Shown: positions 13,389-36,924, numbered from the stretch's first letter. The stretch: DNA of 64,000 nucleotides from a virus (IMGVR_UViG_3300028048_000039:128001-192000); one strand, 5' to 3'. Made by a program: numbers and translations. Notes: generated from the sequence alone by a model not told the origin.

Positions 13389-13805
13389 ATGACACAGGAA
13401 GATAAGCAATTATTACTCAAAGACCTTTGTGCAAGGTTGCCTTATAGGACTAAAATACATATTATAGGAGGAGGCGGAGAAGAAATAGATGCTGACTTAA
13501 CTACCTCTGCTATTGTCTATTTTGAGAGTTGGACTGTTCAACCATATCTCCGCCCAATGTCTTCTATGACTGAGAATGAACGGAAAGAGTTCATTAAATG
13601 TGCGGGGTATGAAATTGAAGAATCCGTCAATGGGAGACATCATGAATACTTTCTAAAAGACTTTTGTGGCACACCAGACAATCCATCTGTCAATGCAGAA
13701 GGGGTTGATTGGCTTAACTCCCATCATTTTGATTTTAGAGATTTAATTGAAAAAGGACTTGCACTGGAATTACCAAAAGATATGTATAAGGAGGAATGGT
13801 TATGA
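13389..13805 (+). CDS. Family A (LLLKDLCARLPY / PYLRPMSSMT / HHFDxRGLI) paralog 1
   Basis: Three conserved blocks shared with 22750, 31355, 32076, 32909, 36592. Confidence 0.8.
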   Translation: MTQEDKQLLLKDLCARLPYRTKIHIIGGGGEEIDADLTTSAIVYFESWTVQPYLRPMSSMTENERKEFIKCAGYEIEESVNGRHHEYFLKDFCGTPDNPSVNAEGVDWLNSHHFDFRDLIEKGLALELPKDMYKEEWL

Positions 13806-14122
13806 AATACATTAATGCAGATAAACTGAAAGTCGAGATAGAAAGACGAATGAATAAACATTGGGAAGAACTTCCAGATGCTGATTCGCCAGAAGACGAT
13901 TGGACACATAATGAACTATGTGAATTAGGCGCATACAAAGAGTTGGAACATATTGAGGATTTCATCGACTCTCTCCAGCAGGAGGGAAAAAGTGTTGCTG
14001 AAAGATTCGCAAGAATAGTTCGTGGGAATCTAATCGGAATAGACAAAGAGGTGCAACAAAAGTTTGAGCAACTTTATTTTGAAGTTACAGGAAATAAAAT
14101 GTATGGAGGGTACAATGACTAA
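13802..14122 (+). CDS. Family E (YIDADKL..IDSLQQE) paralog
   Basis: Shared N-terminus and IDSLQQE block. Confidence 0.7.
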   Translation: MKYINADKLKVEIERRMNKHWEELPDADSPEDDWTHNELCELGAYKELEHIEDFIDSLQQEGKSVAERFARIVRGNLIGIDKEVQQKFEQLYFEVTGNKMYGGYND

Positions 14123-14717
14123 CTATATTGACACAGATAAACTGAAATCTATACTTAGAGAAAGGTATAACACCAACAAATTAGGGCAACATAGTCCTTT
14201 CCGACATGGGAAAGTCGAAGCATTGAAAGAGGTTATCGAACTTATCAACTCTCTCCAGCAGGAACAGCCAGAGCCATCAAATAATTTGGTAGATGTCGAT
14301 GCAGTGAGAGAAGACTTTATAACGGAAATCTATCGTGTACTTGATGCTGATTCTACAAACGATAGAGCGAATGCGATAATTGACGCATTTGATTCTTTGC
14401 CAACAGTTTCTCAGGAGCAGCCGGAGGCTGAGTTGTATAATAATGGCTGGATAGATTGCACAAAGCAAATGCCAAAAGAAACAAAACAATGGTCGGATAC
14501 AATGCAAGGACATAAAGAGTGGACTGAAAGTGATAGGGTTCTTGTGTGGGATTCAATGTATGGATGTGGAGTAGATGCTACAAAGAATGGTAAGTGGATA
14601 TCGGAACAGAGAAACGGTTATACTGGGCAAGTTGTTCATGGCATCATAGCCTGGAGACCAATACCAGAGTTTAATGAAGAACTTTTGTTTAATGAAAGAA
14701 AAGAGAAAAGAAAGTAA
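14115..14717 (+). CDS. Family E paralog with C-terminal DUF551-like module
   Basis: 'INSLQQEQPE'; 'WIDC...MP' ... 'IAWRPIPE'. Confidence 0.7.
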   Translation: MTNYIDTDKLKSILRERYNTNKLGQHSPFRHGKVEALKEVIELINSLQQEQPEPSNNLVDVDAVREDFITEIYRVLDADSTNDRANAIIDAFDSLPTVSQEQPEAELYNNGWIDCTKQMPKETKQWSDTMQGHKEWTESDRVLVWDSMYGCGVDATKNGKWISEQRNGYTGQVVHGIIAWRPIPEFNEELLFNERKEKRK

Positions 14718-14719
14718 CT

Positions 14720-15166
14720 ATGAAAATTGACACTATTGATGAGATTCGCACCGAGATTGAACGAAGATTCTCGGAGTACAACCATAACTCAAACCATCAT
14801 ATCCAAGCAGCAGAGTGTGCAAGTATTCTTGACTTCATCGACTTTCTCCAGCAGGAACAGCCAGAGGAAATATGTTCCAAATGCATCCATCATAGAAAAA
14901 ATGATGATTGTTATTATCCATATGGCGGAATGCAGAGGCGGATAAATGAAAATGGAGTATATGAATGTACAGGGTTTTGTGAGAAAGAACAGGAGCAGTC
15001 AGAAGTGGATTTGGAGAAGGAAATAGATATGTTTGTTGATGGGTGGAGTATTGACGAAGACCTTGGACTTGTAAATGATGAAGGTTGGTCTGTAACTGTT
15101 GGAGACATTAAAAAGGTCGCCCGTCACTTCTACGAACTTGGGCTTAAAGCAAGAAAGGGGGAATAA
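14720..15166 (+). CDS. Family E paralog
   Basis: 'IDFLQQEQPE', 'VDLEKE', 'ARHFYELG'. Confidence 0.7.
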   Translation: MKIDTIDEIRTEIERRFSEYNHNSNHHIQAAECASILDFIDFLQQEQPEEICSKCIHHRKNDDCYYPYGGMQRRINENGVYECTGFCEKEQEQSEVDLEKEIDMFVDGWSIDEDLGLVNDEGWSVTVGDIKKVARHFYELGLKARKGE

Positions 15167-15168
15167 TT

Positions 15169-15564
15169 ATGGGATATATTGATGCAGAAGAACTGAAAGA
15201 AAGAGTAACAGAACTTATTGCAAGTACCAGACAAAAGGATTGGCCGATTGCAGAATATTACTTGAAAAGCGTAATTGACATTATAGATTCTCTCCATCAG
15301 GAGCAAACGGAGGTGGACTTGGAGAAGGAAGTTGAAAAATTTTGTCTTGAATATGATTCAAGAAAAGAAGTGTGGTTTGATATGACTCCAAGGGACAAGA
15401 AAATGTTGAGTATTCCAACATGGAGTAATTTTGCTGCAAATATCGCCCGTCACTTCTACGAACTTGGTAAAAAAGGAAATAAAGAACTAAATAAGAAATC
15501 TAAGGGTTCTAATGATTCCGATATGGGAAGCCCTTGGAGAAATCGCATAATAGAAGAATTGTGA
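15169..15564 (+). CDS. Family E paralog
   Basis: 'IDSLHQEQ', 'VDLEKE', 'ARHFYELG'. Confidence 0.7.
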   Translation: MGYIDAEELKERVTELIASTRQKDWPIAEYYLKSVIDIIDSLHQEQTEVDLEKEVEKFCLEYDSRKEVWFDMTPRDKKMLSIPTWSNFAANIARHFYELGKKGNKELNKKSKGSNDSDMGSPWRNRIIEEL

Positions 15565-15566
15565 AT

Positions 15567-15959
15567 ATGAGTAAATTGAGAGAAAAAGTGGCGGGCTTGT
15601 TATTGAACCTCGCCAGGAAAGTTGATGACAAGACTGTTGAAAGTAAATGCACCTATCCTGCCGCACAGTTACATTTTCTGGACAGTCCACCAATCATAAC
15701 ATATGACAAGTATCATGTAGAGAAGATTCATGCCCAATATAAGATGAGTGATGCAGTATTAAATGCACATAGACATAATTTTAGCTATAATATTGATGAC
15801 ACAATAAGACGTGAACTTATTGATGAAATAAGCAAAATGATTTATGACAGTCATAAAGATGATGTGAAAGAAACATTACAAGCTGATAGTCCTTATAATC
15901 CATCTACATTATTTACATTGGATGTATATATTTGCAAACCACAGAAAAAAGAGAGGTAG
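15567..15959 (+). CDS. Hypothetical protein
   Basis: ATG at 15567 follows the previous stop. Confidence 0.6.
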   Translation: MSKLREKVAGLLLNLARKVDDKTVESKCTYPAAQLHFLDSPPIITYDKYHVEKIHAQYKMSDAVLNAHRHNFSYNIDDTIRRELIDEISKMIYDSHKDDVKETLQADSPYNPSTLFTLDVYICKPQKKER

Positions 15960-15962
15960 GGT

Positions 15963-16145
15963 ATGATTTGGCTAATAATTTATTTAATCGGTGTATTAGT
16001 TGTATTGCTGATGTGTGGAAAATCAATAATTACAACACCTTTCAAGACTTGGGTCCCGAAATTAGTGGCAAAGATGATTTGCTTTATCTTACTTTCTTGG
16101 GTGTTCGTTACAATCTTTGCAATAAAAATGGCTTGGGAAAATTAA
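15963..16145 (+). CDS. Small two-TM membrane protein
   Basis: Two hydrophobic segments. Confidence 0.55.
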   Translation: MIWLIIYLIGVLVVLLMCGKSIITTPFKTWVPKLVAKMICFILLSWVFVTIFAIKMAWEN

Positions 16146-16158
16146 AAGGAGGAAGTAA

Positions 16159-16353
16159 ATGAAAGTAATAAGAATACCTCAACCGAAAGATAGTTGGGAA
16201 GACAATCCTTGTTATGACTGCTGTTTTGGAGTAGATGGAGAATGTAATGCTCCACAAGAAATAATAGACTCTGATGAAGAATGTGGTTTTTCTTGGAATA
16301 AGCCAAATTATGTATATAAACAGGTAGAAGATGGAAAAGGAGGTAGCAAATGA
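16159..16353 (+). CDS. Small Cys-rich hypothetical protein
   Basis: CYDCC..C..C; GGAGG SD; ends GGSK with ATGA overlap. Confidence 0.6.
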   Translation: MKVIRIPQPKDSWEDNPCYDCCFGVDGECNAPQEIIDSDEECGFSWNKPNYVYKQVEDGKGGSK

Positions 16354-16499
16354 AAACGGCAAGAATAAAGGATTATAGTCTTTTTATAGGCAGAAATCTT
16401 GTGACAGAACGAAAGTTACCAGAACCTTGGGGATTGCTTTTATATCTTTCTTGGTTTCAACTTGATTTTAATGATTATATTAAGGATAAGGAGGAATAA
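16350..16499 (+). CDS. Small hypothetical protein (MKTARIKDY...)
   Basis: 49-codon ORF with SD, fills the gap. Confidence 0.55.
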   Translation: MKTARIKDYSLFIGRNLVTERKLPEPWGLLLYLSWFQLDFNDYIKDKEE

Positions 16500-16501
16500 T
16501 T

Positions 16502-16873
16502 ATGGAAAATAAAGAATATATTACTAAAACTGCAATCTGCATAACCATTCCTAAATCAATTAAATGGGATGATTATAAGAAAGAAATTGATACTGTTGCC
16601 GATTGGAGTCAGGAGATGAATTTCAAGGTGAATAACCTACCCACGAAAGTAAAACCAGGCGATAGATGCTATCTCTGCTATGATGGGAATATCATTGGTT
16701 GGATGACAATATCTTCTCTTGGAGAGAAACAATTTCAATGTACTACGACAGGCAAAGATTGGGAGAAAGGGAATTATATTTCACGCAGTGGCCCTTTCCA
16801 TAAGATTAATCCTGTTCCTTGTAAGGGCTTTAGGGGATTCAAATATATTACCTACAAGGTAAAGAACAAATAA
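16502..16873 (+). CDS. ASCH/EVE (PUA-like) domain protein
   Basis: 'KPGDRCYLCY.G.IIG' and C-terminal 'P.PCKGFRGFKY'. Confidence 0.55.
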   Translation: MENKEYITKTAICITIPKSIKWDDYKKEIDTVADWSQEMNFKVNNLPTKVKPGDRCYLCYDGNIIGWMTISSLGEKQFQCTTTGKDWEKGNYISRSGPFHKINPVPCKGFRGFKYITYKVKNK

Positions 16874-16967
16874 TTTGGATATTCTGTCAAAAGTTTGTTA
16901 CTTTGAAAAACTTTTTATATATTTGCAGAAAAGAATTGTTGTTGTTAAATTAAAAAGAAAAAAAATT

Positions 16968-17405
16968 ATGTGCTTAAAGATTAGAAAGAATGCAAAGGTA
17001 AAGACTGCAGAGAAAGATATCGTTTGCTATAAGGTTGTAGAGAAACTGGCTAAATCCGGGTATGTAACTCCGTTCTTTAATATGCCTATTTCTATTGGAG
17101 AAGAATATGGGGATGTAAGTTTGGAGAAAAAAGGTAATATATATGAAGTTGTTGTAGAAGAAGGGTATCATTCCTTAAAAACATTTGAAGATGCTGCGAA
17201 TTATGCAGCGATGTTGATGCTTGTTCGTCATGTTTCCTTTACCATTATTAAATGTGTTATTCCAAAAGGAGCAAAATACTATGATGGGATGACTCCAATA
17301 TTTGGCTACAAACTTTATAATAGTTATGCTTCAGATAAAATAAGATATACTGATGTAGTTTATGAGGATAGGGAAAAAGATTATAGTATAATTAAATATG
17401 TATAA
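16968..17405 (+). CDS. Family B (MCL..A.EDI.CYKV / GFHSF / KC.IPKG) paralog
   Basis: Shared motifs with 8 other copies. Confidence 0.8.
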   Translation: MCLKIRKNAKVKTAEKDIVCYKVVEKLAKSGYVTPFFNMPISIGEEYGDVSLEKKGNIYEVVVEEGYHSLKTFEDAANYAAMLMLVRHVSFTIIKCVIPKGAKYYDGMTPIFGYKLYNSYASDKIRYTDVVYEDREKDYSIIKYV

Positions 17406-17407
17406 AT

Positions 17408-19189
17408 ATGGCAAATGTATTTACAAAATCAGAAGAGTTTAAGTCAGAATACTCTTGCGCAGTAGTGAAGGTAGGAGAACTTACACCTATTGAAGGTTCT
17501 GACTTTCTTGCTAAGACACTCGTCCTTGGAACACAAATAGTGGTAAGGCGTGATTTTATTAAACCTGGTGACACAATGATATATTGTGCAAACGAGACAC
17601 AGTTGAATGAGAGATTCCTTTCTGTTAATAATCTTTTTGAGATTAGTTGCAGGGAGAAGAACGCTAATGCTGAAGAGGTTGCCAAGATTATGGAAGAATA
17701 TGCTCCAATTAAGGCAAAGGCTGATAAGATGCGTAATGAAGCGAAGAACATTAAAGGTGTTATGGAAAGCAAGACCAATTTTTCCAACAAACTTACAAAG
17801 AAAGCAGACAAGTTGGAAAAGAAACTGTCTGAAATGGAGTTAGGCACTGCAGAATATGAAACGCTCAAGGCAGACATTGCGGACAAAAGAAAATCTGCTG
17901 AGAAAGCCCTTTCCGAAGCGATGTCACTTACTACCAAATATACTAATCTTAAGAAGGACATTGAGGACCTTGTAAATTCAGGAAAGCATATTGTTGATGA
18001 AGCGAAGAAGCATTGCGGATTCTTTAACAAGTATGGCAGGGTGCGTTGTATTACACTGAAAGGAACCCCATCATTCGGTTTCTTGTTTTCCCCTGAAGAA
18101 CTCTTCAAGTTTGATAACACCGTCACTATGGAAGATATTGAGGATTGTATAGGCCAGGAGTTTGATACTATTAATGGAGAACTGTTTGTTAAGGTATTTA
18201 TTCCGCCAATGCCGAAAGAAAGCAGAAGAGACAATGCAAACAAGGCACAGAAGAAGATAAAGAGATTTGACAGGATGATTGATGGAGAATTCTTCTTCCA
18301 CTATGACACCACACAGTTGGAAAAGACTATTAATCAGTTCAAGCCAGAAGATGTCATTGATGTATCAATTAAGATTCACGGCACATCATCCATTTTTGCA
18401 AAGGTAAAAGTCAAGAAACCTATTCATTGGAAGACAATTCTCTTTAGTCCTTGGAACTTTGCCATGAGACTATTCCATCTTCCTATGGTTAAGACATATA
18501 AGGTTGAGTATGGCCCAGTTTATTCTTCAAGGACAGTAATCAAGAACCGCTATATTAATTCAAGCACAAATGGTGGCTATTATAATGCAGATATTTGGAC
18601 TGAATACGGAGATATTATCTATCCTTATCTTGATGAAGGTATGACTGTTTATGGTGAAATTTTTGGGTATATCACAGAAAGTGATAAACCAATACAGAAG
18701 ACTTATGATTACGGGTGCGACAAGGGTGAAAACAAAATTATGTTCTACCGAGTGACCAAAGATGAAGATGGCAATAAAAGAGAATGGGAAGTTCAGGAAG
18801 TATTTGAATGGACAAAAGATTTGATTGAAAGGATGAAAGCCAACAATGATGAAAATTGGAAGAAAATACACCCGATTGATATCCTTTATCATGGTACATT
18901 GGAAGACCTCTACCCGGACATTGATACTGAAAATCATTGGCACGAGAATGTCCTTGAGAAATTGAAAAATGACAAGGAACATTTTGGAATGGAAGAAGAT
19001 GAACCGCTTTGTATTTATCATCAGGTTCCGAGGGAAGGAATATGTGTAAGAAAATATGCTGACCCAATTAGAGAATGCTATAAGTTGAAGACAATAAGCT
19101 TTAAGTTAGGGGAAGCGATTCGCTATGACTCCAATGATGTGGATATAGAAGCAGTAGAAGGTTATTCAGAAGACCCTAACGAAAGTTAG
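17408..19189 (+). CDS. ATP-dependent RNA ligase (Rnl2/DRB0094-like) with coiled-coil insertion
   Basis: N-terminal 'LTPIEGSDFL', motif I KIHGTS, 'YGEIFG', 'REGIC', 'YKLK'. Confidence 0.8.
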   Translation: MANVFTKSEEFKSEYSCAVVKVGELTPIEGSDFLAKTLVLGTQIVVRRDFIKPGDTMIYCANETQLNERFLSVNNLFEISCREKNANAEEVAKIMEEYAPIKAKADKMRNEAKNIKGVMESKTNFSNKLTKKADKLEKKLSEMELGTAEYETLKADIADKRKSAEKALSEAMSLTTKYTNLKKDIEDLVNSGKHIVDEAKKHCGFFNKYGRVRCITLKGTPSFGFLFSPEELFKFDNTVTMEDIEDCIGQEFDTINGELFVKVFIPPMPKESRRDNANKAQKKIKRFDRMIDGEFFFHYDTTQLEKTINQFKPEDVIDVSIKIHGTSSIFAKVKVKKPIHWKTILFSPWNFAMRLFHLPMVKTYKVEYGPVYSSRTVIKNRYINSSTNGGYYNADIWTEYGDIIYPYLDEGMTVYGEIFGYITESDKPIQKTYDYGCDKGENKIMFYRVTKDEDGNKREWEVQEVFEWTKDLIERMKANNDENWKKIHPIDILYHGTLEDLYPDIDTENHWHENVLEKLKNDKEHFGMEEDEPLCIYHQVPREGICVRKYADPIRECYKLKTISFKLGEAIRYDSNDVDIEAVEGYSEDPNES

Positions 19190-19257
19190 GGTTTTTTGTT
19201 TTTTAGAAAAAGTTTTTGTATATTTGCACTAGAAATTAATATAAGGAGGAACATAAG

Positions 19258-19368: not shown

Positions 19369-19407
19369 AAATAATGTTTAACTTTTAAATTTAAGGAGGA
19401 ATAGTTT

Positions 19408-19737: not shown

Positions 19738-19739
19738 CT

Positions 19740-20111: not shown

Positions 20112-20113
20112 TT

Positions 20114-22550: not shown

Positions 22551-22748
22551 ATGAAAGCACCAGATAAGATTTGGATAACCGCTGACCTCAATGGATATTA
22601 TATGTCAAATCATCCTCCTTGTGGGGAAGAATACCTCCGCAAAGACACCATTCTGGAATGGGCGAATAATATGAAAAGAATCTGTAAAGGAGCAGAGCCA
22701 ATAGAAAAGGCATATCAGACAATGATAGACAAACTAAATGAAATGTAA
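22551..22748 (+). CDS. Hypothetical protein
   Basis: SD GGAGG; packed. Confidence 0.6.
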   Translation: MKAPDKIWITADLNGYYMSNHPPCGEEYLRKDTILEWANNMKRICKGAEPIEKAYQTMIDKLNEM

Positions 22749-22749: not shown

Positions 22750-23124
22750 ATGACAACAGAAGATAAACAACTATTATTAAAGGACCTCTGTGCAAGGTTG
22801 CCTTATAGGACTAAAATACATATTATAGGAGAAGGTGGGGAAGAAATAGATGCTGACTTAACCACCTCTACTATTGATTATTTTGAGAGTTGGACTGTTA
22901 AACCCTACCTCCGCCCAATGTCAAGTATGATTGAGGAGGAAGAGGAGGAATATAATAGGCTCTTAATGGATGTTGAGTATTATCCGGGGAAGTATTTTGT
23001 TGTTCCGGCAACATCTGTTGTTGATTGGCTTCTTGAACATCACTTTGATTTTAGAGGTCTCTTTAAAAAAGGTCTTGCATTGGAAGCAAAAGAAGATACA
23101 TATATTAAGACAAAGGAGGGATAA
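22750..23124 (+). CDS. Family A paralog 2
   Basis: First half near-identical to 13389, second variable segment unrelated. Confidence 0.8.
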   Translation: MTTEDKQLLLKDLCARLPYRTKIHIIGEGGEEIDADLTTSTIDYFESWTVKPYLRPMSSMIEEEEEEYNRLLMDVEYYPGKYFVVPATSVVDWLLEHHFDFRGLFKKGLALEAKEDTYIKTKEG

Positions 23125-24771: not shown

Positions 24772-25140
24772 ATGACTTTTGGAGAATTTAAGCAACTTGG
24801 TTACGATAATGATTTACCTATGGAATATGCTCTTGTACAAAGTTTACTTGAAGGTAAGATAAATATCATTGAAATAAACAATGCGTATTCTATTGCACTG
24901 GAAAAGGAAAGAAGAATTAAAAATCTGAGGTTTGAAGAAGCCTGTGTAAACCTCGCACAACTTCTGTCTGGTAATTACAAAGAGGAAAACTTAAAAGAAG
25001 CTCAACAAAGAGCTGTACATACACTAAATATGTCAAGAACTCTACCGCATAATGTCTATAACAAGAAGTATTCTTATACAGAAGAAACTAAAAAGGAATG
25101 GGATGAGTTCTGTAAAACTATATATGGAGAAGAATTATGA
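24772..25140 (+). CDS. Hypothetical protein
   Basis: ATGA-coupled to next gene. Confidence 0.65.
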   Translation: MTFGEFKQLGYDNDLPMEYALVQSLLEGKINIIEINNAYSIALEKERRIKNLRFEEACVNLAQLLSGNYKEENLKEAQQRAVHTLNMSRTLPHNVYNKKYSYTEETKKEWDEFCKTIYGEEL

Positions 25141-25868
25141 TTACAGAAGATTATGTAAGTTTTGAAACTGCCAAACTCTTGAAGGAGAAAGGGTTTAAGG
25201 CGTGGTGCTATAAGTCCTATGGAACTGCTGTATATCATAAAGGTGTACCAATCAGTTTCGATGAAGAATGCGAACTGAAAGAAGAAGGACTTGAAGATGA
25301 AATTGAATATGTTGAAGGTGGATATCTTTATGATTTTGGGTATGACAACAGAAAGAAAGATGCAAAAGTATGGGCTGCTCCAACATTGTGGATGGCTATG
25401 AAATGGTTGAGAGAAGCACATAAGATTGATATCACAGTTGACCCGCACGAAGTCGGAAATAATTGGATATATCAATTTCATATCTGTCAAAATAAAGATT
25501 ATTTGTTTTCAAGAGACATTGATACGTCTTATGAAAATTGTGCAGAAGCAGCGATAAAATATTGTCTTAAGAATCTTATAAAAAATGAAAATGGGGAAGA
25601 AGAATCTAACATTTCAGTTCCTAAGACAGTTAATGAAGCAATCTCTACGCTTGAGAAAATACTTTCAGATGAGGACAAGGAATATCTTCTTAAAAATGGA
25701 GCAATTTCAATGCATAGTTCTCTTGGCAGATGGATTAGAAATGAATGGGGATTATGGACAGATTCAGAATTGAAAAATGAGTTGAAGAAAAAAGGGGTTG
25801 AACACCCTGATGATATGTCGAATTATATTATAGAAGAATTTATTAAATATTGGAATAATAAAATATGA
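25137..25868 (+). CDS. Family C (MITEDYVSFE.AKLL / MAMKWLRE / AIKYCL) paralog fused to a DUF6794-like C-terminal domain
   Basis: Family blocks, then 'HSSLGRWIRNEWGLW...HPDDMS.YII'. Confidence 0.75.
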   Translation: MITEDYVSFETAKLLKEKGFKAWCYKSYGTAVYHKGVPISFDEECELKEEGLEDEIEYVEGGYLYDFGYDNRKKDAKVWAAPTLWMAMKWLREAHKIDITVDPHEVGNNWIYQFHICQNKDYLFSRDIDTSYENCAEAAIKYCLKNLIKNENGEEESNISVPKTVNEAISTLEKILSDEDKEYLLKNGAISMHSSLGRWIRNEWGLWTDSELKNELKKKGVEHPDDMSNYIIEEFIKYWNNKI

Positions 25869-26245
25869 TTACAGAAGATTATGTAAGTTTTGAAACCGCT
25901 AAACTCTTGAAAGAGAATGGATTTAAGATTCCGTATGATTCTTTCAGGGGTGTGTACATAAATGGTATTTTTAAGAGACTTAATCCAGGAGATGGTTATG
26001 GATATAATACAGGGGATGAAATTGTGGAAGTGTGTTCTCTACAAATGGCAATGAAGTGGCTGAGAGAAGAGCATAAGATTGAAATATATCCATATCATCA
26101 AAATTCACCAACATGTGATAAGTGGTGGTTTGAGATTGTAAATTTCCCATCCCAAGTTAGCGAATATGAATCCAATACAATATATACCACTTACGAAGAA
26201 GCCTGTGAAGTGGCGATAAAGTATTGTTTAGAAAAATTAATTTAG
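25865..26245 (+). CDS. Family C paralog
   Basis: Same 5' 30 nt as 25137. Confidence 0.8.
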   Translation: MITEDYVSFETAKLLKENGFKIPYDSFRGVYINGIFKRLNPGDGYGYNTGDEIVEVCSLQMAMKWLREEHKIEIYPYHQNSPTCDKWWFEIVNFPSQVSEYESNTIYTTYEEACEVAIKYCLEKLI

Positions 26246-26424: not shown

Positions 26425-26790
26425 ATGATTACAGAAGATTATGTAAGTTTTGAAGTTGCAAAACTATTGGAAGAGAAAGGGTTTAACGAAGCATGTTTTG
26501 CTTTTTATAATCCTGAGGGTATGCTTATACAAAGCGGTATAAGACTTAATAATATTCAAGTAGGTGTGGTAAAAGGTTCTTACTCTGCTCCAACCCTTCA
26601 AATGGCAATGAAGTGGTTGAGAGAAGTACACGGATTGCATGTGGATATTGACCCATTAGAAGGGAATTGGCGTACTAAAATTGTAGAATTGGAAGATTTG
26701 TGCGAGGTGGATAGAGGTATCTCATTATATGGTACATATGAAGAAGCCTGTGAAGCGGCTATAAAGTACTGTTTAGAAAATTTGATTTAG
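26425..26790 (+). CDS. Family C paralog
   Basis: Follows promoter 26390; family blocks. Confidence 0.8.
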   Translation: MITEDYVSFEVAKLLEEKGFNEACFAFYNPEGMLIQSGIRLNNIQVGVVKGSYSAPTLQMAMKWLREVHGLHVDIDPLEGNWRTKIVELEDLCEVDRGISLYGTYEEACEAAIKYCLENLI

Positions 26791-29080: not shown

Positions 29081-30862
29081 ATGACAAGAGAAGAAGCAAT
29101 AAGGATACTAAGTGAAAGATATAGTAGTGCCTTATTTTCAGAACGCACTGCACTGGAAACACTTATTCCTGAACTCAAAGAAAGTGAGGAAGAAAAAGCA
29201 AGAAAGTGGATATATGACTACATCCATAACTGTCCTAATGAGTCTTTTGAGTTCTATGGTGGGGTCGGGAAAGATGCTGTCTTGAACTACATCGAAAAGC
29301 AGAAATACGATAGGATGAAACCTATCTATGATGCAAGAGAATCCTTTGAATCCGCACTTGAAAAGGCTTGGAATGATTATCATAACGGATATGAAAATGT
29401 TGACAAGTTGGAAGATGACTATGTGGAATGCGCTCATGCCAAGGGATTCCGTGAAGGATACTTATTTGGCATCGAAAAGCAGAAAGAGGCAAGTAAAGCA
29501 ATAGAGGCTGTTGAAAACATTGACAAGTACCTTGATGAACATCTTGCCAATGCACACGATATGAAGGATTCCAATCCTGACAAAAAGTATTACCGTGGAT
29601 GGGACGATTATCCAGAACTGGCAGGAATACTACAGGATGTTTATTCCGAAGAAGAGCAGAAAGAGCCTGATGGGACATGGACAGAAGAAGATGAAGCGAC
29701 GGGAAAATATGCAAAAGAACACCCAGCTAACCTTGAAGAAGCAGCAGAAAAATATGCAAATAAAGAACATCCAGATGAGTCAAGTGTTGGACAATTTGGT
29801 ACAGGTGATTATGAGCCACCTATTGATAGAGAATACCCAAGAGAAATTGCAAAAGATGCTTTCAAAGCTGGTGCAGAATGGCAGCAGAAAAAGCAGAAAC
29901 CAGTAGAGGATTGGAGAGAAAAGAGAAAGGAAGAGTGTCCGTTTAGGAGAAACCTTGACAACAATCTTTATGGCTGTAAACGATATGCTGATGTAATTAG
30001 CGAATGTACTGGAGCCTGTTCTTGGGTTGTGGATTACCCGAAGATAAAAGAAATTCAAGATAGGCAAGAACAGAAGCCCGAATCTAAGGTAGAACCTAAG
30101 TTCAGGGTTGGTGACACTCTCCGTAAAAAGGGTAAGAGTTATACATTCACTGTAGACAGAATAATAGATGATTGCTATCTTACAGAAAGAAATAGTTTCT
30201 TCTACATTCAGGACCAAGACCAATGGGAACTTGTTTCCATCCCGATTGAGGGCGAATTTCCTTATACTGACTCCGCAGACACTTTGGATGGCGAGATAGA
30301 CAACATTTGGAGTAAATTAAGTTGCAACAACTGGTTTACAGCAGACAAATGCGGCTTTTATGAAGTAATCCACCATTTTGCAAACTGGATTGAAGAGCAT
30401 CAGCCTAAAGAGTGGAGCGAGGATGATGAGCACAGATGTAAGGATGCTATCTATTTTCTCGAAACGGCAAAAAAACATTATGCTTGTACTTCAGAGATTG
30501 AACTCACTATTAAATGGCTCAAATCACTCCGTCCACAATCTAAAGATGAAATACACAAAGAGAAAAATGAGAAACCTAAACACACGGAAGTATGGGTAGA
30601 AGGTAGGACAATCTTTGAGCAAGATGCAAATACTTTTGTTAACACCGAGGGAGAATTCGAAGCCAAACTCACAGGATGGGTGGCGAGAGATGAAAATAGA
30701 GAAATATGGGTTTATGGTAATTACCCTGAAAAAAATTCTGAAAAGCATATATGGACAGAAAGTAGTTGTATGCCTCTTGACCAAAAATCTTTTCCAGACC
30801 TCAAATGGGAAGACGAACCTGTAGAAGTTGAGATAACTATTAGAAAAAATGAGTATGTCTAA
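29081..30862 (+). CDS. Family D long modular protein 2
   Basis: Ends shared with 27336; internal module shared with 37544. Confidence 0.8.
   Translation: MTREEAIRILSERYSSALFSERTALETLIPELKESEEEKARKWIYDYIHNCPNESFEFYGGVGKDAVLNYIEKQKYDRMKPIYDARESFESALEKAWNDYHNGYENVDKLEDDYVECAHAKGFREGYLFGIEKQKEASKAIEAVENIDKYLDEHLANAHDMKDSNPDKKYYRGWDDYPELAGILQDVYSEEEQKEPDGTWTEEDEATGKYAKEHPANLEEAAEKYANKEHPDESSVGQFGTGDYEPPIDREYPREIAKDAFKAGAEWQQKKQKPVEDWREKRKEECPFRRNLDNNLYGCKRYADVISECTGACSWVVDYPKIKEIQDRQEQKPESKVEPKFRVGDTLRKKGKSYTFTVDRIIDDCYLTERNSFFYIQDQDQWELVSIPIEGEFPYTDSADTLDGEIDNIWSKLSCNNWFTADKCGFYEVIHHFANWIEEHQPKEWSEDDEHRCKDAIYFLETAKKHYACTSEIELTIKWLKSLRPQSKDEIHKEKNEKPKHTEVWVEGRTIFEQDANTFVNTEGEFEAKLTGWVARDENREIWVYGNYPEKNSEKHIWTESSCMPLDQKSFPDLKWEDEPVEVEITIRKNEYV
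30410..30525 (+). repeat. 116-bp intragenic repeat (second copy at 38873-38988)
   Basis: Encodes EWSE.D.HRCKDAIYFLETAKKHYA.TSEIELTI.WLKS. Confidence 0.85.
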
Positions 30863-30971
30863 AGTTACAAGGTTGGAAAAATTGCAAAAAATTCCAACCT
30901 GTTTTTGTTTTCTCATTTTCTTTTTGTATATTTGCAGAAAAGTATATAAGTAAAGATAAGGATGATTAATT

Positions 30972-31358
30972 ATGTGTTTAACATTGAATAACTATTCAAA
31001 AATAGTAATAGCAGAAGAAGACATCATCTGCTACAAGGTATTGCGTGTATTTTCCACAGGGGGTATAGAGGCTCCTTTTCGCAAATTCCAATATGAGGTA
31101 GGAGAAACATATCATACAGATAAAAGACTGAAGAAGATTTGGGACCATGCAAATGGTGTATATGTCATAAAAAAAGGATTCCATAGTTTTCCTCATCATA
31201 TAGATGCAGTTTCTTTCAATAAGAGAATTCTTCCATACACTTTGAATAGTAAGGTCTATAAGTGTATAATACCCAAAGGAACAAGGATGATTTTGGGACA
31301 TTTTTATGGGATGCCATCTATCGTTTCTGAAACAATTAAAATAATAGAAAGAGTATGA
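30972..31358 (+). CDS. Family B paralog
   Basis: CYKV / GFHSF / KCIIPKG. Confidence 0.8.
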   Translation: MCLTLNNYSKIVIAEEDIICYKVLRVFSTGGIEAPFRKFQYEVGETYHTDKRLKKIWDHANGVYVIKKGFHSFPHHIDAVSFNKRILPYTLNSKVYKCIIPKGTRMILGHFYGMPSIVSETIKIIERV

Positions 31359-31801
31359 CAACAGAAAATAAGCAGCTATTACTCAAAGACCTCTGTGCGA
31401 GGTTGCCTTATAGGGTAATAGCATATGCATCTGAAATCAATAAAAATGGAATCATAACAGACGTTAATGTACCATACAATATGGTCAATTTAACAGTTGA
31501 TAATGAGAGTGGAAAGTATGAATTAGTTCCTTTATTTGATATTAAACCTTATCTTCGTCCAATGTCAAGTATGACTGAGGAAGAAAAGAAGGTATTTGAT
31601 GATTTTGTTTGTATTGATGAGTTTGCTTGGAACGGTAATGCTGAAAAAGGATATCCAAACCAGGCAGCCATTATGTCAGATGGTATTGACTGGCTTCTTG
31701 AACATCATTTTGATTTCCGTGGTTTGATTAAGAAAGAATTAGCATTGGAGGCGCCGGAGGGAATGTATAAAAGGGGAGTAGCAAATGAGCAGCTTTGTTA
31801 A
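31355..31801 (+). CDS. Family A paralog 3
   Basis: Three conserved blocks. Confidence 0.8.
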   Translation: MTTENKQLLLKDLCARLPYRVIAYASEINKNGIITDVNVPYNMVNLTVDNESGKYELVPLFDIKPYLRPMSSMTEEEKKVFDDFVCIDEFAWNGNAEKGYPNQAAIMSDGIDWLLEHHFDFRGLIKKELALEAPEGMYKRGVANEQLC

Positions 31802-32063
31802 CAAATACAAAATTGTCTATGATGGCAATGATGGAATGACTTACGAAAAGTTTATTTATTGTAAGTTTGAGAATGTTTGGGATGGCCAATTATGGAGAAA
31901 TGAAGACGGTACGCCAGTAGACTTTGAATGCGTTACAGACAGCGAGGCTTATGTTACCGCAATGTGCATTGCAAATATTCCAACTGAGGATAAATACTTC
32001 TATTGGGAAAAAGTAGAAGAATTTGTGCTTCCAGAAGCAGTTGAAAAAGAGTTCTATAAATAA
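31785..32063 (+). CDS. Hypothetical protein
   Basis: Preceded by GGAGTAGCAAATG junction. Confidence 0.65.
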   Translation: MSSFVNKYKIVYDGNDGMTYEKFIYCKFENVWDGQLWRNEDGTPVDFECVTDSEAYVTAMCIANIPTEDKYFYWEKVEEFVLPEAVEKEFYK

Positions 32064-32075
32064 AGAAATTGAATT

Positions 32076-32525
32076 ATGACACAAGAAGAAAAACAACTAT
32101 TATTAAAGGACCTCAGTGCGAGGTTGCCTTATGGAGTTATAATGAACTATAAAGACTCTATAGTTGATTCTCATACTTGGAAACTCAGTACTCTATATGC
32201 TTTGTCATATAGTAAAGCGGGAATTCCAATAGATACAGATTGGGATGGAAATGTAGAATATGTAGAGTACCAGGGATGTAGTATGTCAACTGCTTCGAGA
32301 CCCATTTCTCTTGAAAAAAATCTTCCTTATCTCCGCCCAATGTCAAGTATGACAGAGGAAGAGAAAGAGGATTTTGGTGTCCCATTCACCTCGGAAGGAC
32401 TTGTTACACTTGCTGACACAGTGGAGTGTATGGATTGGCTCAACAAGCATCATTTTGACTATCGTAGTTTGATTGAAAAGGGTTTGGCTCTTGAAGCACC
32501 TGAAGGAATGTATAAAACTGAATAG
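32076..32525 (+). CDS. Family A paralog 4
   Basis: Three conserved blocks. Confidence 0.8.
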   Translation: MTQEEKQLLLKDLSARLPYGVIMNYKDSIVDSHTWKLSTLYALSYSKAGIPIDTDWDGNVEYVEYQGCSMSTASRPISLEKNLPYLRPMSSMTEEEKEDFGVPFTSEGLVTLADTVECMDWLNKHHFDYRSLIEKGLALEAPEGMYKTE

Positions 32526-32528
32526 ACT

Positions 32529-32912
32529 ATGACACAGGAAAATATACAGAAAATAAAAGATAAACGACGGGAAGAAAGAGAGAATTATATTGCAAAGACT
32601 GTCAAGTGGCTAGAGGAGCTTAAGCCTTTTACGGAGGAGTTCATACCAGAGCCGCCGATTCTTGACAAGGAGATGTACGACAAGTATGTAATCCCTAACT
32701 TTATCCGTTGCGGAGCCATTCCCAAGGACAAGTTAATCATTGGAGAGACCTACATTGGAAATTGCCGGAATGCAAGTGAAGCGGCGTGGAATGGCAAGGC
32801 GTTTACTTATAAGCGCACCAAGTTCGGCTGTACATATGATGAGGATATAAACCATTTCCAGGATGATGACGGTTATGATGTTTTCGTTCCTATAAAAATT
32901 AAAGAATTATGA
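32529..32912 (+). CDS. Conserved phage hypothetical protein
   Basis: 'GAIPK..L..G..Y.G.CRNA..A.W.G..F.Y.R.KFG' pattern. Confidence 0.7.
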   Translation: MTQENIQKIKDKRREERENYIAKTVKWLEELKPFTEEFIPEPPILDKEMYDKYVIPNFIRCGAIPKDKLIIGETYIGNCRNASEAAWNGKAFTYKRTKFGCTYDEDINHFQDDDGYDVFVPIKIKEL

Positions 32913-33322
32913 CACAAGAAGAAAAACAACTATTATTAAAGGACCTCTGTGCGAGGTTGCCGTATGGAGTAAGAATCAATCATATAATTTATGGTTGGGA
33001 GGGGAATGCGGTAAATTTCAATAAAAAATTAGAATCTTTCGCTATTGAAAAAGATAATGGACTTTCTTATGATGTGCCTGTAGAAGAGGTGCGCCCCTAT
33101 CTCCGCCCAATGTCAAGTATGACTGATGAAGAGGTAAAAGAATTTTATGATGTGGAATGTATGGATGCAGAAGTTGGATATATTAAACCTACTTGGAATT
33201 GGCATTTTACAATAAATGGAATTGATTGGCTCAATGAACATCATTTTGACTACAGAGGTTTAATCAACAAAAGATTAGCATTAGAGGCACCTGAAGGAAT
33301 GTATGAAAGTAAGAATAATTAG
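32909..33322 (+). CDS. Family A paralog 5
   Basis: Three conserved blocks. Confidence 0.8.
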   Translation: MTQEEKQLLLKDLCARLPYGVRINHIIYGWEGNAVNFNKKLESFAIEKDNGLSYDVPVEEVRPYLRPMSSMTDEEVKEFYDVECMDAEVGYIKPTWNWHFTINGIDWLNEHHFDYRGLINKRLALEAPEGMYESKNN

Positions 33323-33467
33323 AAATATTGGTCCTATTGGCTGTGTAACTAGTCCTTCTGTTGGAACTTATACAGTAGAGAAAGAGGTTACAACAGAAGA
33401 ATTATTATCTCTATTAAATAATCCAGAAGATTTAATAAAAATAGAAATATTGTATAAAGAGGAATAA
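33303..33467 (+). CDS. Small hypothetical protein (MKVRIIRNIG...)
   Basis: 54 codons filling the gap. Confidence 0.5.
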   Translation: MKVRIIRNIGPIGCVTSPSVGTYTVEKEVTTEELLSLLNNPEDLIKIEILYKEE

Positions 33468-33469
33468 AT

Positions 33470-33892
33470 ATGTGTTTGATTTTATTTGATACCGAAATAA
33501 GAGTAGCGAAGGAAGACATTATCTGCTACAAGGTATTTGAGAAACGGGGTGATGATTTAATATCTCCTTATCAGAATATGCACTATGAATATGGCAGAGC
33601 GTATGTGACAGAAACTCCTATAATAGTAAAATACGGAGTTGCAACGAGAGGATACATAGAAGAAGGGTTTCATTCTTTTCTTAAAAAAGAAGATGCACAA
33701 TACTTTGCATCAAATCTACAGACATGGTTTCTTCCTGTCAAACCTAGTATCCTCCAAGTTGGAATGGAGTTTATAACAGTAAAGTGTTTAATTCCTGCGG
33801 GAACAAGATATGCAGCGGGGTTTTTCTGTGAATTTGGAAAGAGTTTTGATAGTTTCTGCTCAGAACGAATAATAGCGGTGGAGGAAGTTTAG
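33470..33892 (+). CDS. Family B paralog (tandem 1/5)
   Basis: Family motifs. Confidence 0.8.
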   Translation: MCLILFDTEIRVAKEDIICYKVFEKRGDDLISPYQNMHYEYGRAYVTETPIIVKYGVATRGYIEEGFHSFLKKEDAQYFASNLQTWFLPVKPSILQVGMEFITVKCLIPAGTRYAAGFFCEFGKSFDSFCSERIIAVEEV

Positions 33893-33894
33893 TT

Positions 33895-34293
33895 ATGTGT
33901 CTTAAAGTAGGAAACAATACTAAAATTGAAACAGCACAAGAAGACATCATTTGTTACAAAGTCTTCAGAACAGAAACATATTCAGGGAGATTTGGACTTC
34001 TATCACCCTATCGAAAAATGAAATATATCCCCGATGTATTGTATACCTTAGAAAAGCCTTTGGAAATAGATAGCACCACATGGTTATACCCAATTGTTGA
34101 AAAAGGATTTCATTCCTTCGTATCTAGAGAATCAGCACACATGTTTTTGGACGACTACTATGTCAGAAAACCAGCAATACTCAAATGTAAGATACCAAAA
34201 GGAGCAAAGTTTGTACGAGGAATTTTTCGGTTTTATGGATTTGATTATGAAAGTATTTGCTCAGACCAAATAATTGTGTTAGAAAGTGTATAA
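33895..34293 (+). CDS. Family B paralog (tandem 2/5)
   Basis: Family motifs. Confidence 0.8.
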   Translation: MCLKVGNNTKIETAQEDIICYKVFRTETYSGRFGLLSPYRKMKYIPDVLYTLEKPLEIDSTTWLYPIVEKGFHSFVSRESAHMFLDDYYVRKPAILKCKIPKGAKFVRGIFRFYGFDYESICSDQIIVLESV

Positions 34294-34295
34294 AT

Positions 34296-34745
34296 ATGTG
34301 TTTGACTTTAACTGAAAATTCAAAATTAAAAGTAGCAGAAGAAGATATCGTTTGCTACAAAGTGGTACTGAGACAGTATTCCGGGGTCTACAGGTCAGAA
34401 TTTTACGCTTACCTATATGAAACAGGGGTCTTAAATAAGCACCCATTTGGTGACATTACAATTACTACCCTTCCACGTATTACTACCTATCGGAGTGCTA
34501 ACTTTAACCAACAGGTTATTGCCGGCTATGAGCAGGTTGTTGAAAGGGGATTTCATTCTTTTACATGTAAAAAAGATGCTTACAAGTATGCTGGGTGTGT
34601 TATCAATAGGATGTTTCACGGTATTAGCAAAGACGTAGTAGTAGTAAAATGTATTATTCCAAAGGGTGCTAACTATATTGAAGGTACATATAGCGAGTAT
34701 CCAAATTACGTATCTAATAAAATAATTTGTTTAGGAGAAATTTAG
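34296..34745 (+). CDS. Family B paralog (tandem 3/5)
   Basis: Family motifs; start MCL at 34296. Confidence 0.8.
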   Translation: MCLTLTENSKLKVAEEDIVCYKVVLRQYSGVYRSEFYAYLYETGVLNKHPFGDITITTLPRITTYRSANFNQQVIAGYEQVVERGFHSFTCKKDAYKYAGCVINRMFHGISKDVVVVKCIIPKGANYIEGTYSEYPNYVSNKIICLGEI

Positions 34746-34746
34746 T

Positions 34747-35199
34747 ATGTGTTTGTATGTAACGAGTAAAAAAGTACGGGTAGCAAAGGAAGATATGGTT
34801 TGCTATAAAGTTATGATGGAACATTATGGAGACAAAGGAGCGTGGGTGTCTCCTTATCAGGGTATGGCTTATAAGGAAGGATGCGCCTATGAATTGGAGA
34901 AGCAATTGCAATTGTTGGATTCCAAATTTGGAAACATCAAAGATTATCCTTACATAGTAGAAGAAGGGTTCCATTCTTTTGCAAACTTATCAGATGCTTT
35001 GCTTTTTCGAAATACCTGTGAAGTCAGGTATCCAACTGTGAGCCGGGGTGACGGTTGGCACACTTATATTATAGTAAAATGTATTATTCCTAAAGGGACA
35101 ACCTATGTAGAAGGATTATACGTTGATAATTGGGATAATAAGTTTCATAGTTTTTGCTCCGAGAAAATAATTTGTGAAGACGAAATTGAAATTGAGTAA
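34747..35199 (+). CDS. Family B paralog (tandem 4/5)
   Basis: Closest to 36927. Confidence 0.8.
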   Translation: MCLYVTSKKVRVAKEDMVCYKVMMEHYGDKGAWVSPYQGMAYKEGCAYELEKQLQLLDSKFGNIKDYPYIVEEGFHSFANLSDALLFRNTCEVRYPTVSRGDGWHTYIIVKCIIPKGTTYVEGLYVDNWDNKFHSFCSEKIICEDEIEIE

Positions 35200-35211
35200 T
35201 TAGGATAGAAT

Positions 35212-35613
35212 ATGTGTTTAATTGTAAATAGTGAACTAAAAGTAGCACAAGAAGATATAGTCTGCTACAAAGTCCTTAGGTATTGCGAGCCATTGAAATC
35301 ACCGTTTCGAGGAATGGCTTATCTTAAAAATCATCTCTATGAATTGGGGAAACCGTTGCAAGTGGATAGTCACCATCGTATAAATGAGGGTTTTCATTCC
35401 ATTATCAGAGCCGATGATGCTAAGAAACTATCAGATGATATAGGCTATTTTTACGAGCATTATTCCGAAAACAAACATTGCTGTATTGTAGCAAAGTGTA
35501 TAATACCAAAAGGAACTGTCTATGCGGAAGGACTGTTCAGTTATGGGAATAAGTATCACAGTTATTGCTCGGAAAAGATAAAAGTAATTGATATTGTAGA
35601 AGACGATAAATAA
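35212..35613 (+). CDS. Family B paralog (tandem 5/5)
   Basis: Family motifs. Confidence 0.8.
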   Translation: MCLIVNSELKVAQEDIVCYKVLRYCEPLKSPFRGMAYLKNHLYELGKPLQVDSHHRINEGFHSIIRADDAKKLSDDIGYFYEHYSENKHCCIVAKCIIPKGTVYAEGLFSYGNKYHSYCSEKIKVIDIVEDDK

Positions 35614-35634
35614 TTTGCGTAAAAGAGGTTTAGT

Positions 35635-35664
35635 ATGTGTTTGGATGTAATAAGTAAAGAATAA
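35635..35664 (+). pseudogene. 9-codon stub of a family B gene (MCLDVISKE*)
   Basis: TTTAGTATGTGTTTG.ATGTAA..AGTAAA matches the start of 34747. Confidence 0.55.
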
Positions 35665-35671
35665 ATGACTA

Positions 35672-36181
35672 ATGAAAACTACTAAGAATATGAAATATAA
35701 AGAATTTGTAAAGCAGATATGGGATGCTGTGGAAGAGTGTCCTGATAACTGGAGAAAAGGCCAAAAGGTGTTTAATGTGATGGAAACACTCTATGGGGAT
35801 GTGGCGAGACAAGTTCAATTCATCAACAAGGTGGATTGCTTCTATGATGATAAGCAAATAGAACCATTCATCGACCAGTGCTGGATAAGGGTTTTCTCTA
35901 AAGAACATCCAATTCCGCCAAGAGAAGAAGAGTCAGTGGATTTTGATGAAGCAGCAGCCAAGTACATAGAATCTCAAACTCCTGCTGACCAAGGGGAAGA
36001 AATGACTATCTATAATGCTTTCAAAGCAGGTGCAGAGTGGCATGCTCGGCAAGGACAGATATTTGAGTCTGTCGTATGGCAAGATAGTGATGACAAACTT
36101 TTTGTTGAAGCATTTGTTGATGAAAACAAGTTCAAAATGGCTGATGGTGTAGTCATCCAAGTTATAAGAAAGACAATATGA
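35672..36181 (+). CDS. Mosaic hypothetical protein
   Basis: 'WRKGQ..FN..DCFYDD' domain fused to the 'VDFDEAAAKY...AFKAGAEW' module. Confidence 0.7.
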   Translation: MKTTKNMKYKEFVKQIWDAVEECPDNWRKGQKVFNVMETLYGDVARQVQFINKVDCFYDDKQIEPFIDQCWIRVFSKEHPIPPREEESVDFDEAAAKYIESQTPADQGEEMTIYNAFKAGAEWHARQGQIFESVVWQDSDDKLFVEAFVDENKFKMADGVVIQVIRKTI

Positions 36182-36298
36182 GGAAACCAAATTTTGAAAG
36201 GGAAGCAATAGCGTTTTGTTTTTTTTAAAAAAGTTTTGTATATTTGCAATGTTGAAAAATTAACTAACATTTTATATTAACTTTTAAATTTTTAAAAT

Positions 36299-36424
36299 AT
36301 GAGTTGGAATTTTTACCCAGAAAATAGGTTTTCATCTTATGATGATTATGTAAAGTATCTTAAAGAAAGGGGCTTTGCCATGGAAGCACCAGAAGGGATG
36401 TATGAAAAAGGAAGTAAGATATGA
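36299..36424 (+). CDS. Short ORF ending in the family A C-terminal block (MEAPEGMY)
   Basis: 41 codons after promoter 36239; chimeric remnant. Confidence 0.55.
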   Translation: MSWNFYPENRFSSYDDYVKYLKERGFAMEAPEGMYEKGSKI

Positions 36425-36588
36425 ATATAGAAGATATATGGAACATTGATAATCTTTACCGAATGAACAGAACAACAAAAGAGGCATCTGATGAATTAAA
36501 ACTTCCAGAATCTGATGTTATTGCTGTTTATTTGAAAATAAGAGAACATGAGAAGAATTTAAGAAAAAGACCATTGTATAAAATATAA
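36421..36588 (+). CDS. Small hypothetical protein
   Basis: 55 codons, ATGA overlap. Confidence 0.5.
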   Translation: MNIEDIWNIDNLYRMNRTTKEASDELKLPESDVIAVYLKIREHEKNLRKRPLYKI

Positions 36589-36591
36589 ATT

Positions 36592-36924
36592 ATGACACAA
36601 GAAGAAAGACAACTACTACTAAAAGACCTCTGTGCAAGAATTCCTTATGAGGTTCAATGCGAAATTGGTGGGCTTCGATATGGACCATATACATTTACGG
36701 GTGATGATATTGAAGACTTAATTGCTGGGAGAATGTTCAAACCCTATCTTCGTCCAATGTCAAGTATGACTGAGGAAGAAGAAATATACTATAACACGAT
36801 ATATATTACTCTGAAATTTTATGAAAGGGAAGATTGGCTCAATGCTCATCACTTTGACTATCGTGGACTCATTGAAAAGGGTCTCGCCATTGAAGCACCT
36901 GAAGATATGTATAAGGAGGAATAA
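36592..36924 (+). CDS. Family A paralog 6
   Basis: Three conserved blocks. Confidence 0.8.
   Translation: MTQEERQLLLKDLCARIPYEVQCEIGGLRYGPYTFTGDDIEDLIAGRMFKPYLRPMSSMTEEEEIYYNTIYITLKFYEREDWLNAHHFDYRGLIEKGLAIEAPEDMYKEE

Follow-up and report, generated by a model that had tools for sequence, protein, structure and literature searches.

The gp38 adhesins of T-even phages contain conserved glycine-rich motifs, which form the core, and separate hypervariable segments of a restricted palette (Trojet et al. 2011, PMC3157838). Exchanges between phages, at or near the conserved parts, swap specificity (PMC3157838; Tetart et al. 1998 as cited there). This design is the nearest described parallel to a family of small viral genes, matching PHROG 10841, that is analyzed here. 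Six of its members lie between positions 13389 and 36924 of a 64,000-nucleotide stretch (hereafter, the window) that corresponds to bases 128001-192000 of the 344,580-bp IMG/VR virus record IMGVR_UViG_3300028048_000039 (CheckV completeness estimate 93%). The GC content is ~36%, and between the 6 and 60 kb positions of the window almost every gene is on the plus strand and most genes are small. Positions are those of the window unless the record is named. As in gp38, motifs conserved in a fixed order surround segments drawn from a limited palette (here, three blocks, bimodal cassette identities and recurring cassette types), and variable segments are exchanged at the conserved parts (here, all three blocks contain tract ends, and a single cassette distinguishes orthologous loci). 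The family gave no Pfam or PDB sequence match and appears unrelated to gp38 in sequence and fold. The virion adhesin gp38 is present in a single copy and has four short loops, while the family consists of small acidic predicted dimers present in 1-45 copies and carrying two longer cassettes, and a virion role is not indicated for it.

In systems of the pilin (pilE/pilS) type, the numerous paralogous copies undergo RecA-dependent gene conversion, guided by conserved stretches that lie between variable minicassettes. These systems have one expression site and silent partial copies, and switch frequently within a lineage. In contrast, all copies of the family studied here are complete open reading frames (ORFs) that are non-redundant within a genome, and exchange looks episodic. 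Diversity-generating retroelements resemble the family in the localised variability of phage accessory or binding proteins, but the family has no reverse transcriptase (RT) or template repeat, and its discrete, unalignable cassettes are under purifying selection. It differs from invertase shufflons in having neither a site-specific recombinase nor flanking inverted repeats. The family is neither a diversity-generating retroelement nor a shufflon. It is set apart from gp38 and pilin by being apparently unrelated to them and multi-copy, with two long cassettes acting as independent loci at population scale.

Six paralogs and the reassortment of their cassettes

Protein and DNA alignments revealed six full plus-strand paralogs of 110-149 aa, each with the layout N block-V1-M block-V2-C block. 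The N block, MTQEEKQLLLKDLCARLPY, is 19 aa long, the M block, KPYLRPMSSMTEEE, 14 aa, and the C block, DWLNxHHFDYRGLIEKGLALEAPEGMY, 27 aa. The variable segments (V1, 31-64 aa; V2, 17-42 aa) are unalignable between most copies. An initial annotation of this DNA had described six paralogs with three conserved blocks around two variable segments, and the alignments, sequence matches and record-wide scans confirmed that description. Each of two 20-mers that it quoted as block sequence was matched six times with no more than three mismatches, compared to 0.00-0.01 matches expected; a third string, elliptic as written, failed as typed, though the corresponding block is plain in the alignments. No members beyond the six came to light when all 344,580 bp of the record were scanned for the motifs in six frames and searched with a profile.

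The first member (13389..13805, 138 aa) is composed of the N block at 13389-13445, V1 at 13446-13538, the M block at 13539-13580, V2 at 13581-13706 and the C block at 13707-13787. In the second (22750..23124, 124 aa from the ATG at 22750, with a further ATG upstream at 22738) the same elements occupy 22750-22806, 22807-22899, 22900-22941, 22942-23022 and 23023-23103. The V1 common to these two genes, and their divergence after it, had also been noticed before and are evident from the counts: 86 of 93 nt match in V1 (92% DNA identity) and 48 of 57 in the N block, compared to 11 of 30 in the ten codons that follow the M block. The V2 type of 13389 is seen again in loci L083 and L007. The third member (31355..31801, 148 aa) has its N block at 31355-31411, V1 at 31412-31543, M block at 31544-31585, V2 at 31586-31687 and C block at 31688-31768; another V1 is present at the orthologous locus L084. 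The fourth (32076..32525, 149 aa; M block 32322-32363, C block 32433-32513) has the longest V1 of the six (63 aa), of a type also found in L084, and a V2 type that recurs beside other V1 types (P0031/L085, P0059, P0068, P0089). The C block of the fifth (32909..33322, 137 aa; M block 33092-33133, C block 33224-33304) is seen again in L083 together with an 18-nt tail (18/18 nt). The sixth and shortest member (36592..36924, 110 aa; M block 36739-36780, C block 36832-36912) carries V1 and V2 types that were not found elsewhere in our sample.

To describe the cassettes across the family, the blocks were located by position-weight scans in 412 distinct members, and V1 and V2 were compared separately. 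Cassettes were considered shared at 60% identity or more and unrelated below 30%. Pairwise cassette identity was bimodal, lying either below ~30% or above ~50%; V1 and V2 therefore come as discrete types, 274 of V1 (21-69 aa in the family) and 272 of V2 (14-60 aa). The median identity of the 60 block residues over the 412 members was 80%. Among pairs of members with the same V1, V2 was unrelated in 472 of 499 cases; V1 was unrelated in 256 of 279 pairs with the same V2. One V1 type (26 members) was combined with 25 V2 types, one V2 type (17 members) was combined with 10 V1 types, and three four-gamete squares were found. Thus, V1 and V2 types are almost freely reassorted over the rumen/gut phage population. 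Rapid divergence of one segment was rejected as the cause, since the same cassette returns in unrelated backgrounds. Copies within one genome are non-redundant: the 126 members at multi-copy loci represent 126 V1 types and 125 V2 types. For pairs of cassettes of the same type, the ratio of nonsynonymous to synonymous divergence (pN/pS) was 0.27 for V1 and 0.19 for V2, and differences within a type were mostly synonymous. The cassettes are discrete types under purifying selection; their earlier description as hypervariable was not borne out.

Next, exchange tracts were mapped using DNA that was at hand for 185 members. Only patches of 150-400 bp with 80-91% identity to the window were present in the fetched loci, and none of the loci came from a close genome; whole-locus orthology was therefore usable only for L084 and for the pair L028/L073. 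The 1.6-kb contig L084 comes from a different sample. Its identity to window positions 30923-31420, where the gene preceding 31355 and the N block of 31355 lie, is 97%. The V1 that L084 carries bears no relation to the V1 of 31355 and matches that of the neighbouring paralog 32076 at 90%. Informative sites return to 31355 within the M block, at nt 15-33, the V2 that follows is 89% identical to 31355, and another switch occurs within the C block, near nt 35-43 (Fisher p about 0.002 for each switch, with breakpoints picked after inspection). L028 and L073, long IMG/VR contigs from different samples, are 98% identical in the upstream flank, 100% in the N block, 98% in V1, 93% in the M block and 95% in the C block, with V2 replaced (129 vs 72 nt). 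In the pairs L007/L083 and L012/L072, the M block and V2 are 98-100% identical, V1 and the flanks are unrelated, and the identical tract stops 13 to 32 nt into the C block. Two L039 paralogs located 6 kb apart match at 98 of 99 nt in V2, with a tract that extends from ~nt 16 of the M block to around nt 47-56 of the C block. Within the window, 22750 is also a mosaic: 7 of 8 informative sites of its N block up to nt 39 follow 32909/32076, and from nt 45 until the M block begins, including V1 at 92%, the gene resembles 13389. Individual exchange tracts end inside the blocks, and the aligned loci show in-place replacement of cassettes by crossovers within them. With the tract ends of L084, L028/L073, L007/L083, L012/L072, L039 and 22750 so placed, the core of the initial annotation, i.e. 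exchange with breakpoints in the blocks, holds.

Conservation of the blocks and recombination functions of the phage

The blocks had been taken to be conserved as DNA, conservation at the protein level only, with saturated synonymous sites, being named as the pattern that would contradict this. A check of synonymous divergence revealed just that pattern. Between unrelated members of different loci, codon identity at identical residues was 56% in the N block, 50% in the M block and 49% in the C block, compared to ~42% expected from codon usage of the genome. At leucine positions of the blocks codon identity was 19-28%, as is random for six codons. Uncorrected synonymous divergence (pS) of the blocks was 0.65-0.75, i.e. 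at saturation, with nonsynonymous divergence (pN) of 0.14-0.20 and DNA identity between random members of 70-76%. Since codon identity is near expectation, synonymous sites are saturated and exact runs are short, the blocks are held by protein-level selection, which is strong and acts on all three (60 residues). Among the window members, codon identity of the blocks was 0.71 (N), 0.61 (M) and 0.53 (C), and exact runs of 29-43 nt were found between some paralogs; this higher likeness fits a few recent exchanges and not a DNA-level signal. The idea that the blocks act as recombination handles thus stands in part: segments do reassort, with crossovers within blocks both in and between genomes, but the blocks, with their near-saturated synonymous sites, are not DNA-conserved handles.

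A search of the 344,580-bp record with the RVT_1 model gave no RT match, while control genomes were positive, and neither a resolvase nor a tyrosine recombinase/integrase was found in the record. The members are free of flanking inverted repeats, and the region 12500-37500 contains just two inverted pairs, both weak and unrelated. Reassortment without an RT or invertase, as originally proposed, agrees with these results. RecT and ERF were likewise not found in the record. The sole general recombinase detected by the Pfam models tried is a RecA/UvsX-like ORF (411 aa; record 337861-338058, beyond the window). The simplest interpretation is that general recombination acts on short homology, and this enzyme would presumably be the one involved. 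A scan for σ70 promoters and terminators showed no enrichment.

Spread of the family and neighbouring genes

All six proteins match PHROG 10841 (E 1.3e-6 to 2.1e-11), mainly through the N and M blocks or the C block. PHROG 10841 is without functional annotation, and searches of Pfam, NCBIfam and PADLOC gave no match for the family. A search of 5.8 billion clustered proteins yielded at least 8000 clusters at 90% identity, with no informative name among the matches listed. An exhaustive HMMER search over 1.84 billion representatives at 50% identity yielded 6312 matches with E<=1e-3; 3623 were left at E<=1e-10. Among the protein families of rumen/gut jumbo phages that are uncharacterised, this is one of the larger ones. 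Besides the six copies in the record studied, jumbo-phage genomes that were complete by CheckV or nearly so contained 45 (in 413 kb), 15, 9, 1 and 6 copies; in the genome with 45 copies, the family accounts for about 5% of the sequence. One 20-kb locus held 24 members. Relatives are located on IMG/VR jumbo-phage contigs and in rumen bins of metagenome-assembled genomes (MAGs), mostly labelled Prevotella or Bacteroidales, with no isolate genome among the sources of the relatives found. These sources agree with a rumen or gut habitat of the phage and a probable host in Bacteroidota. BLAST of window positions 30900-37400 and of one member against 50,697 GenBank phage records produced zero matches, and no relevant publication emerged from literature searches on the family, on DUF6794 or on arrays of this kind in rumen jumbo phages. 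Two records deposited as bacterial MAGs consist of, or include, one very long contig with several copies of this phage-only family: CACYXI010000001.1 (286,648 bp; L088/L091/L092; 'Bacteroidales RUG12352') and ONIZ01000001.1 (410,106 bp; L095/L096; 'Firmicutes RUG343'). Both look like jumbo-phage genomes filed under bacteria.

Some ORFs depart from the single-unit layout. Tandem double units of 272-293 aa contain two complete N-V1-M-V2-C units in one ORF (L070 5398-6216; P0121, P0122, P0123, P0126). At L039 7150-8052 a partial unit (M and C blocks) is in frame with a full dihydrofolate reductase (E 9e-47), and at L016 10974-11762 a full unit follows a weakly UDG-like N-terminal part. The dihydrofolate reductase and UDG-like fusions are probably read-through of tightly packed genes. 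A DUF6794 domain is fused to a family member in another phage (P0190). In the window, a separate three-member family (25137-25868, 25865-26245 and 26425-26790) has a first copy that continues into a DUF6794 domain (E 3e-24). The heterogeneous fusions (DUF6794, dihydrofolate reductase and the weak UDG-like match) were considered as functional hints and dropped, being read as accidents of tight packing.

Upstream of the sixth member, a plus-strand mini-ORF (36299..36424, 41 aa) was characterized by sequence inspection and a homologue search. Of the family layout it contains only the tail of the C block (..YVKYLKERGFAMEAPEGMYEK), its C-terminal end being RGFAMEAPEGMYEK. It had been described as a foreign 5' end spliced onto the 3' block. 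The C-block tail is indeed present, but the ORF is no one-off or fresh splice: L013, L022 and L023 contain homologues with 56-71% identity, two of them in L022. Those of L013 and L022 immediately follow family members, and in L023 the mini-ORF peptide stands behind an N block in a 51-aa ORF. The mini-ORF is a short derivative of the C block, retained as a conserved small gene of these phages. Its upstream spacer (36182-36298) contains a TAtaTTTG motif of the Bacteroidota -7 type which, as judged by direct inspection, may be its promoter.

A second family, with ten paralogs of the pattern MCL..AEEDIVCYKV..SPF..GFHSF..KCIIPKG..CSEKI, is interleaved with the PHROG 10841 members and abuts three of the six directly. 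It matches PHROG 13450 and, weakly, DUF7666. Its paralogs are located at 16968-17405, 30972-31358, 33470-33892, 33895-34293, 34296-34745, 34747-35199, 35212-35613, 36927-37373 and 45110-45511 (minus strand) of the window and at 223933-224367 of the record. The invariant Cys2 and further invariant Cys, His and Ser residues suggest that this family may be an enzyme. Other neighbours of family members belong to PHROGs of unknown function only. On a 59-kb phage contig, a member is located in the early arm, near SSB, PcfK/PcfJ and an ArdC-like polyvalent protein. Isolated patches at 13946-14147, 15272-15457, 15448-15850 and 29727-29877 of the window, 150-400 bp long, are 82-91% identical to the otherwise unrelated phage contigs L007, L024 and L040, which suggests that module-sized exchange may be general in the accessory arm.

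Predicted structure, competing explanations and possible function

The AlphaFold2 model of 31355 (pLDDT 86) contains an N-block helix (residues 3-19), four V1 strands and a fifth strand supplied by the first part of the M block, followed by helices from the M block, V2 and the start of the C block; the C-block tail is folded back onto the domain. A VIA-wide fold search with this model gave the KOW domain of NusG as the best match (Z 4.9; 52 residues aligned, rmsd 1.6) and Hfq at Z 4.0, a weak resemblance to KOW, Tudor and Sm/Hfq barrels that concerns one V1 type. In the model of 36592 (pLDDT 87), the scaffold is kept and V1 consists of two strands and a helix, without two strands of the 31355 sheet. 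The barrel therefore belongs to one cassette type and not to the family, and cassette types can differ in structure. No structural neighbour of the 36592 model was found above Z 2.3. The best E value was 0.058 for Foldseek against PDB and 0.08 for BFVD, and named Atlas clusters gave nothing; the Atlas structure search matched family members and one DUF6794 fusion only. A sequence profile search of PDB returned nothing even at E 10. The proteins are acidic, with a median net charge of -9, 98% of members negative and isoelectric points of 4.6-4.9 for the six.

Complex prediction for a 31355 homodimer reached a score of 0.86, compared to 0.36 for the best of three controls. The same mark was attained by 20 of 30 proteins whose solved structures are pairs of one chain and by 1 of 23 solved as single chains; these counts apply only roughly here, since our own alignment was used. 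Contacts agreed by at least 87% among runs, and the pLDDT of the partner was at least 81. The predicted interface is formed by the N-block helix (C14 to C14), the M block, the V2 helix (V2 residues 81-111) and the start of the C block. There is no solved relative, so the score does not reflect a known structure. The family protein is thus predicted to be a homodimer.

Taken together, we consider it probable that this is a phage-only cassette family whose blocks are a protein scaffold that provides short homology, and whose cassettes are exchanged by ordinary recombination. Exchange would proceed by homologous or short-homology recombination and gene conversion between paralogs of one genome or with co-infecting phages, probably with the phage's own RecA/UvsX-type recombinase. 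The blocks would contribute 10-40 nt of matching DNA, and would do so only because their protein sequence is fixed: scaffold first, with recombination sites as a by-product. The blocks are predicted to make up the core of a symmetric homodimer and some of its interface, the variable cassettes would most likely bind differing host or rival proteins, e.g. in counter-defence, and the outcome would be a non-redundant repertoire of 1 to 45 copies in each genome. Several points weigh against this reading. For random pairs of members, the median length of the longest exact block run is 10-11 nt, and 4-13% of pairs reach 20 nt or more, so each exchange must be rare or need a permissive recombinase. 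Blocks of paralogs at the same locus are no more alike than blocks of different loci; exchange is therefore episodic, not continuous. The list of the 120 top matches is biased to the cassette types of the window, a bias from which the 150 cluster representatives and the loci of IMG/VR are free. L083 and L084, which are among the clearest mosaics, are short Logan contigs on which assembly chimeras at repeats are possible; the other mosaic examples are located on contigs of 42 to 345 kb. The homodimer is a prediction only, and the searches for function gave no named homologue and no informative neighbour.

A rival reading of these data is that the blocks are evolved recombination signals, their DNA selected for dedicated or programmed high-frequency shuffling of cassettes. 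Every mapped crossover lies within the blocks, and block DNA in the window is above the family baseline (codon identity of 0.71 in N and 0.61 in M, with the 29-43-nt runs). However, crossovers between unrelated cassettes are visible only within blocks, and this location is therefore no surprise. The near saturation of synonymous sites, the random choice of leucine codons (0.19-0.28), the equal likeness of blocks within and between loci and the lack of an RT, invertase or integrase in the record make such signals improbable. A diversity-generating retroelement or an invertase shufflon has nothing in its favour beyond the general look of localised variability. With no RT, resolvase or tyrosine recombinase in the record, no inverted repeats around the members, all copies being complete ORFs on the same strand, and cassettes that are unrelated rather than adenine-targeted variants of a template, we regard a driver of this kind as practically excluded. 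It is also very improbable that there is no true reassortment and that the pattern arose from chimeric assembly at the repeated blocks together with very rapid divergence of a single segment. The data do come from metagenome assemblies, the blocks are repeated within genomes, and L083 and L084 are short. Yet 13389 and 22750 are located 9 kb apart on one 345-kb contig with V1 segments that are 92%, not 100%, identical; exact block repeats are mostly below assembler k-mers; the same V2 type is found with up to 10 V1 types over samples and assemblers; the orthologous long contigs L028 and L073 differ in V2 alone; and fast divergence is unable to remake the same cassette in unrelated backgrounds.

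Cassette variety may alternatively serve evasion or insulation, the scaffold having one function while V1 and V2 escape host sensors, or while V2 stops mixed dimers from forming among up to 45 paralogs. Conservation of the scaffold far above that usual for phage accessory proteins is consistent with this, as are the location of V2 residues 81-111 within the predicted interface and the presence of a different V2 type in every copy of a genome (125 types in 126 members). Pure evasion, however, leaves up to 45 different copies per genome unexplained, selection on the cassettes is purifying and not diversifying, and V1 is only partly in the predicted interface. We therefore consider evasion or insulation unlikely, if less so than evolved recombination signals.

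Within the preferred reading, a phage-only family with a protein scaffold and exchangeable cassettes, we tentatively propose that the family is a repertoire of protein binders, e.g. counter-defence factors, for varying targets of the host or of rivals. Its traits fit such a repertoire: the proteins are small, acidic, predicted to dimerize, phage-only, strongly expanded and non-redundant, with swappable modules on a near-invariant scaffold. A more specific and more doubtful version is a two-site combinatorial binder system in which the dimer scaffold is fixed, V1 sets the target and V2, in the interface, sets the choice of partner, with thousands of types shuffled across rumen phages and up to 45 per genome. 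The N block was also considered as a capsid-targeting leader; this was dropped, the block being without a hydrophobic-x-E ending.

The family is an unusually clean natural case of modular protein evolution, with two cassette positions near linkage equilibrium, exchange tracts that can be mapped to the nucleotide and conserved parts that are demonstrably constrained as protein and not as DNA. It also carries a caution: constant/variable gene layouts in phages need no special machinery. If binding is confirmed as the role of the cassettes, the family would represent a phage-host conflict repertoire in Bacteroidota and a ready-made small scaffold for the design of binders; otherwise it is still of use as a marker family. 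The two-site combinatorial system, if true, would be a repertoire-type counter-defence or host-takeover arsenal without a described equivalent in viruses.

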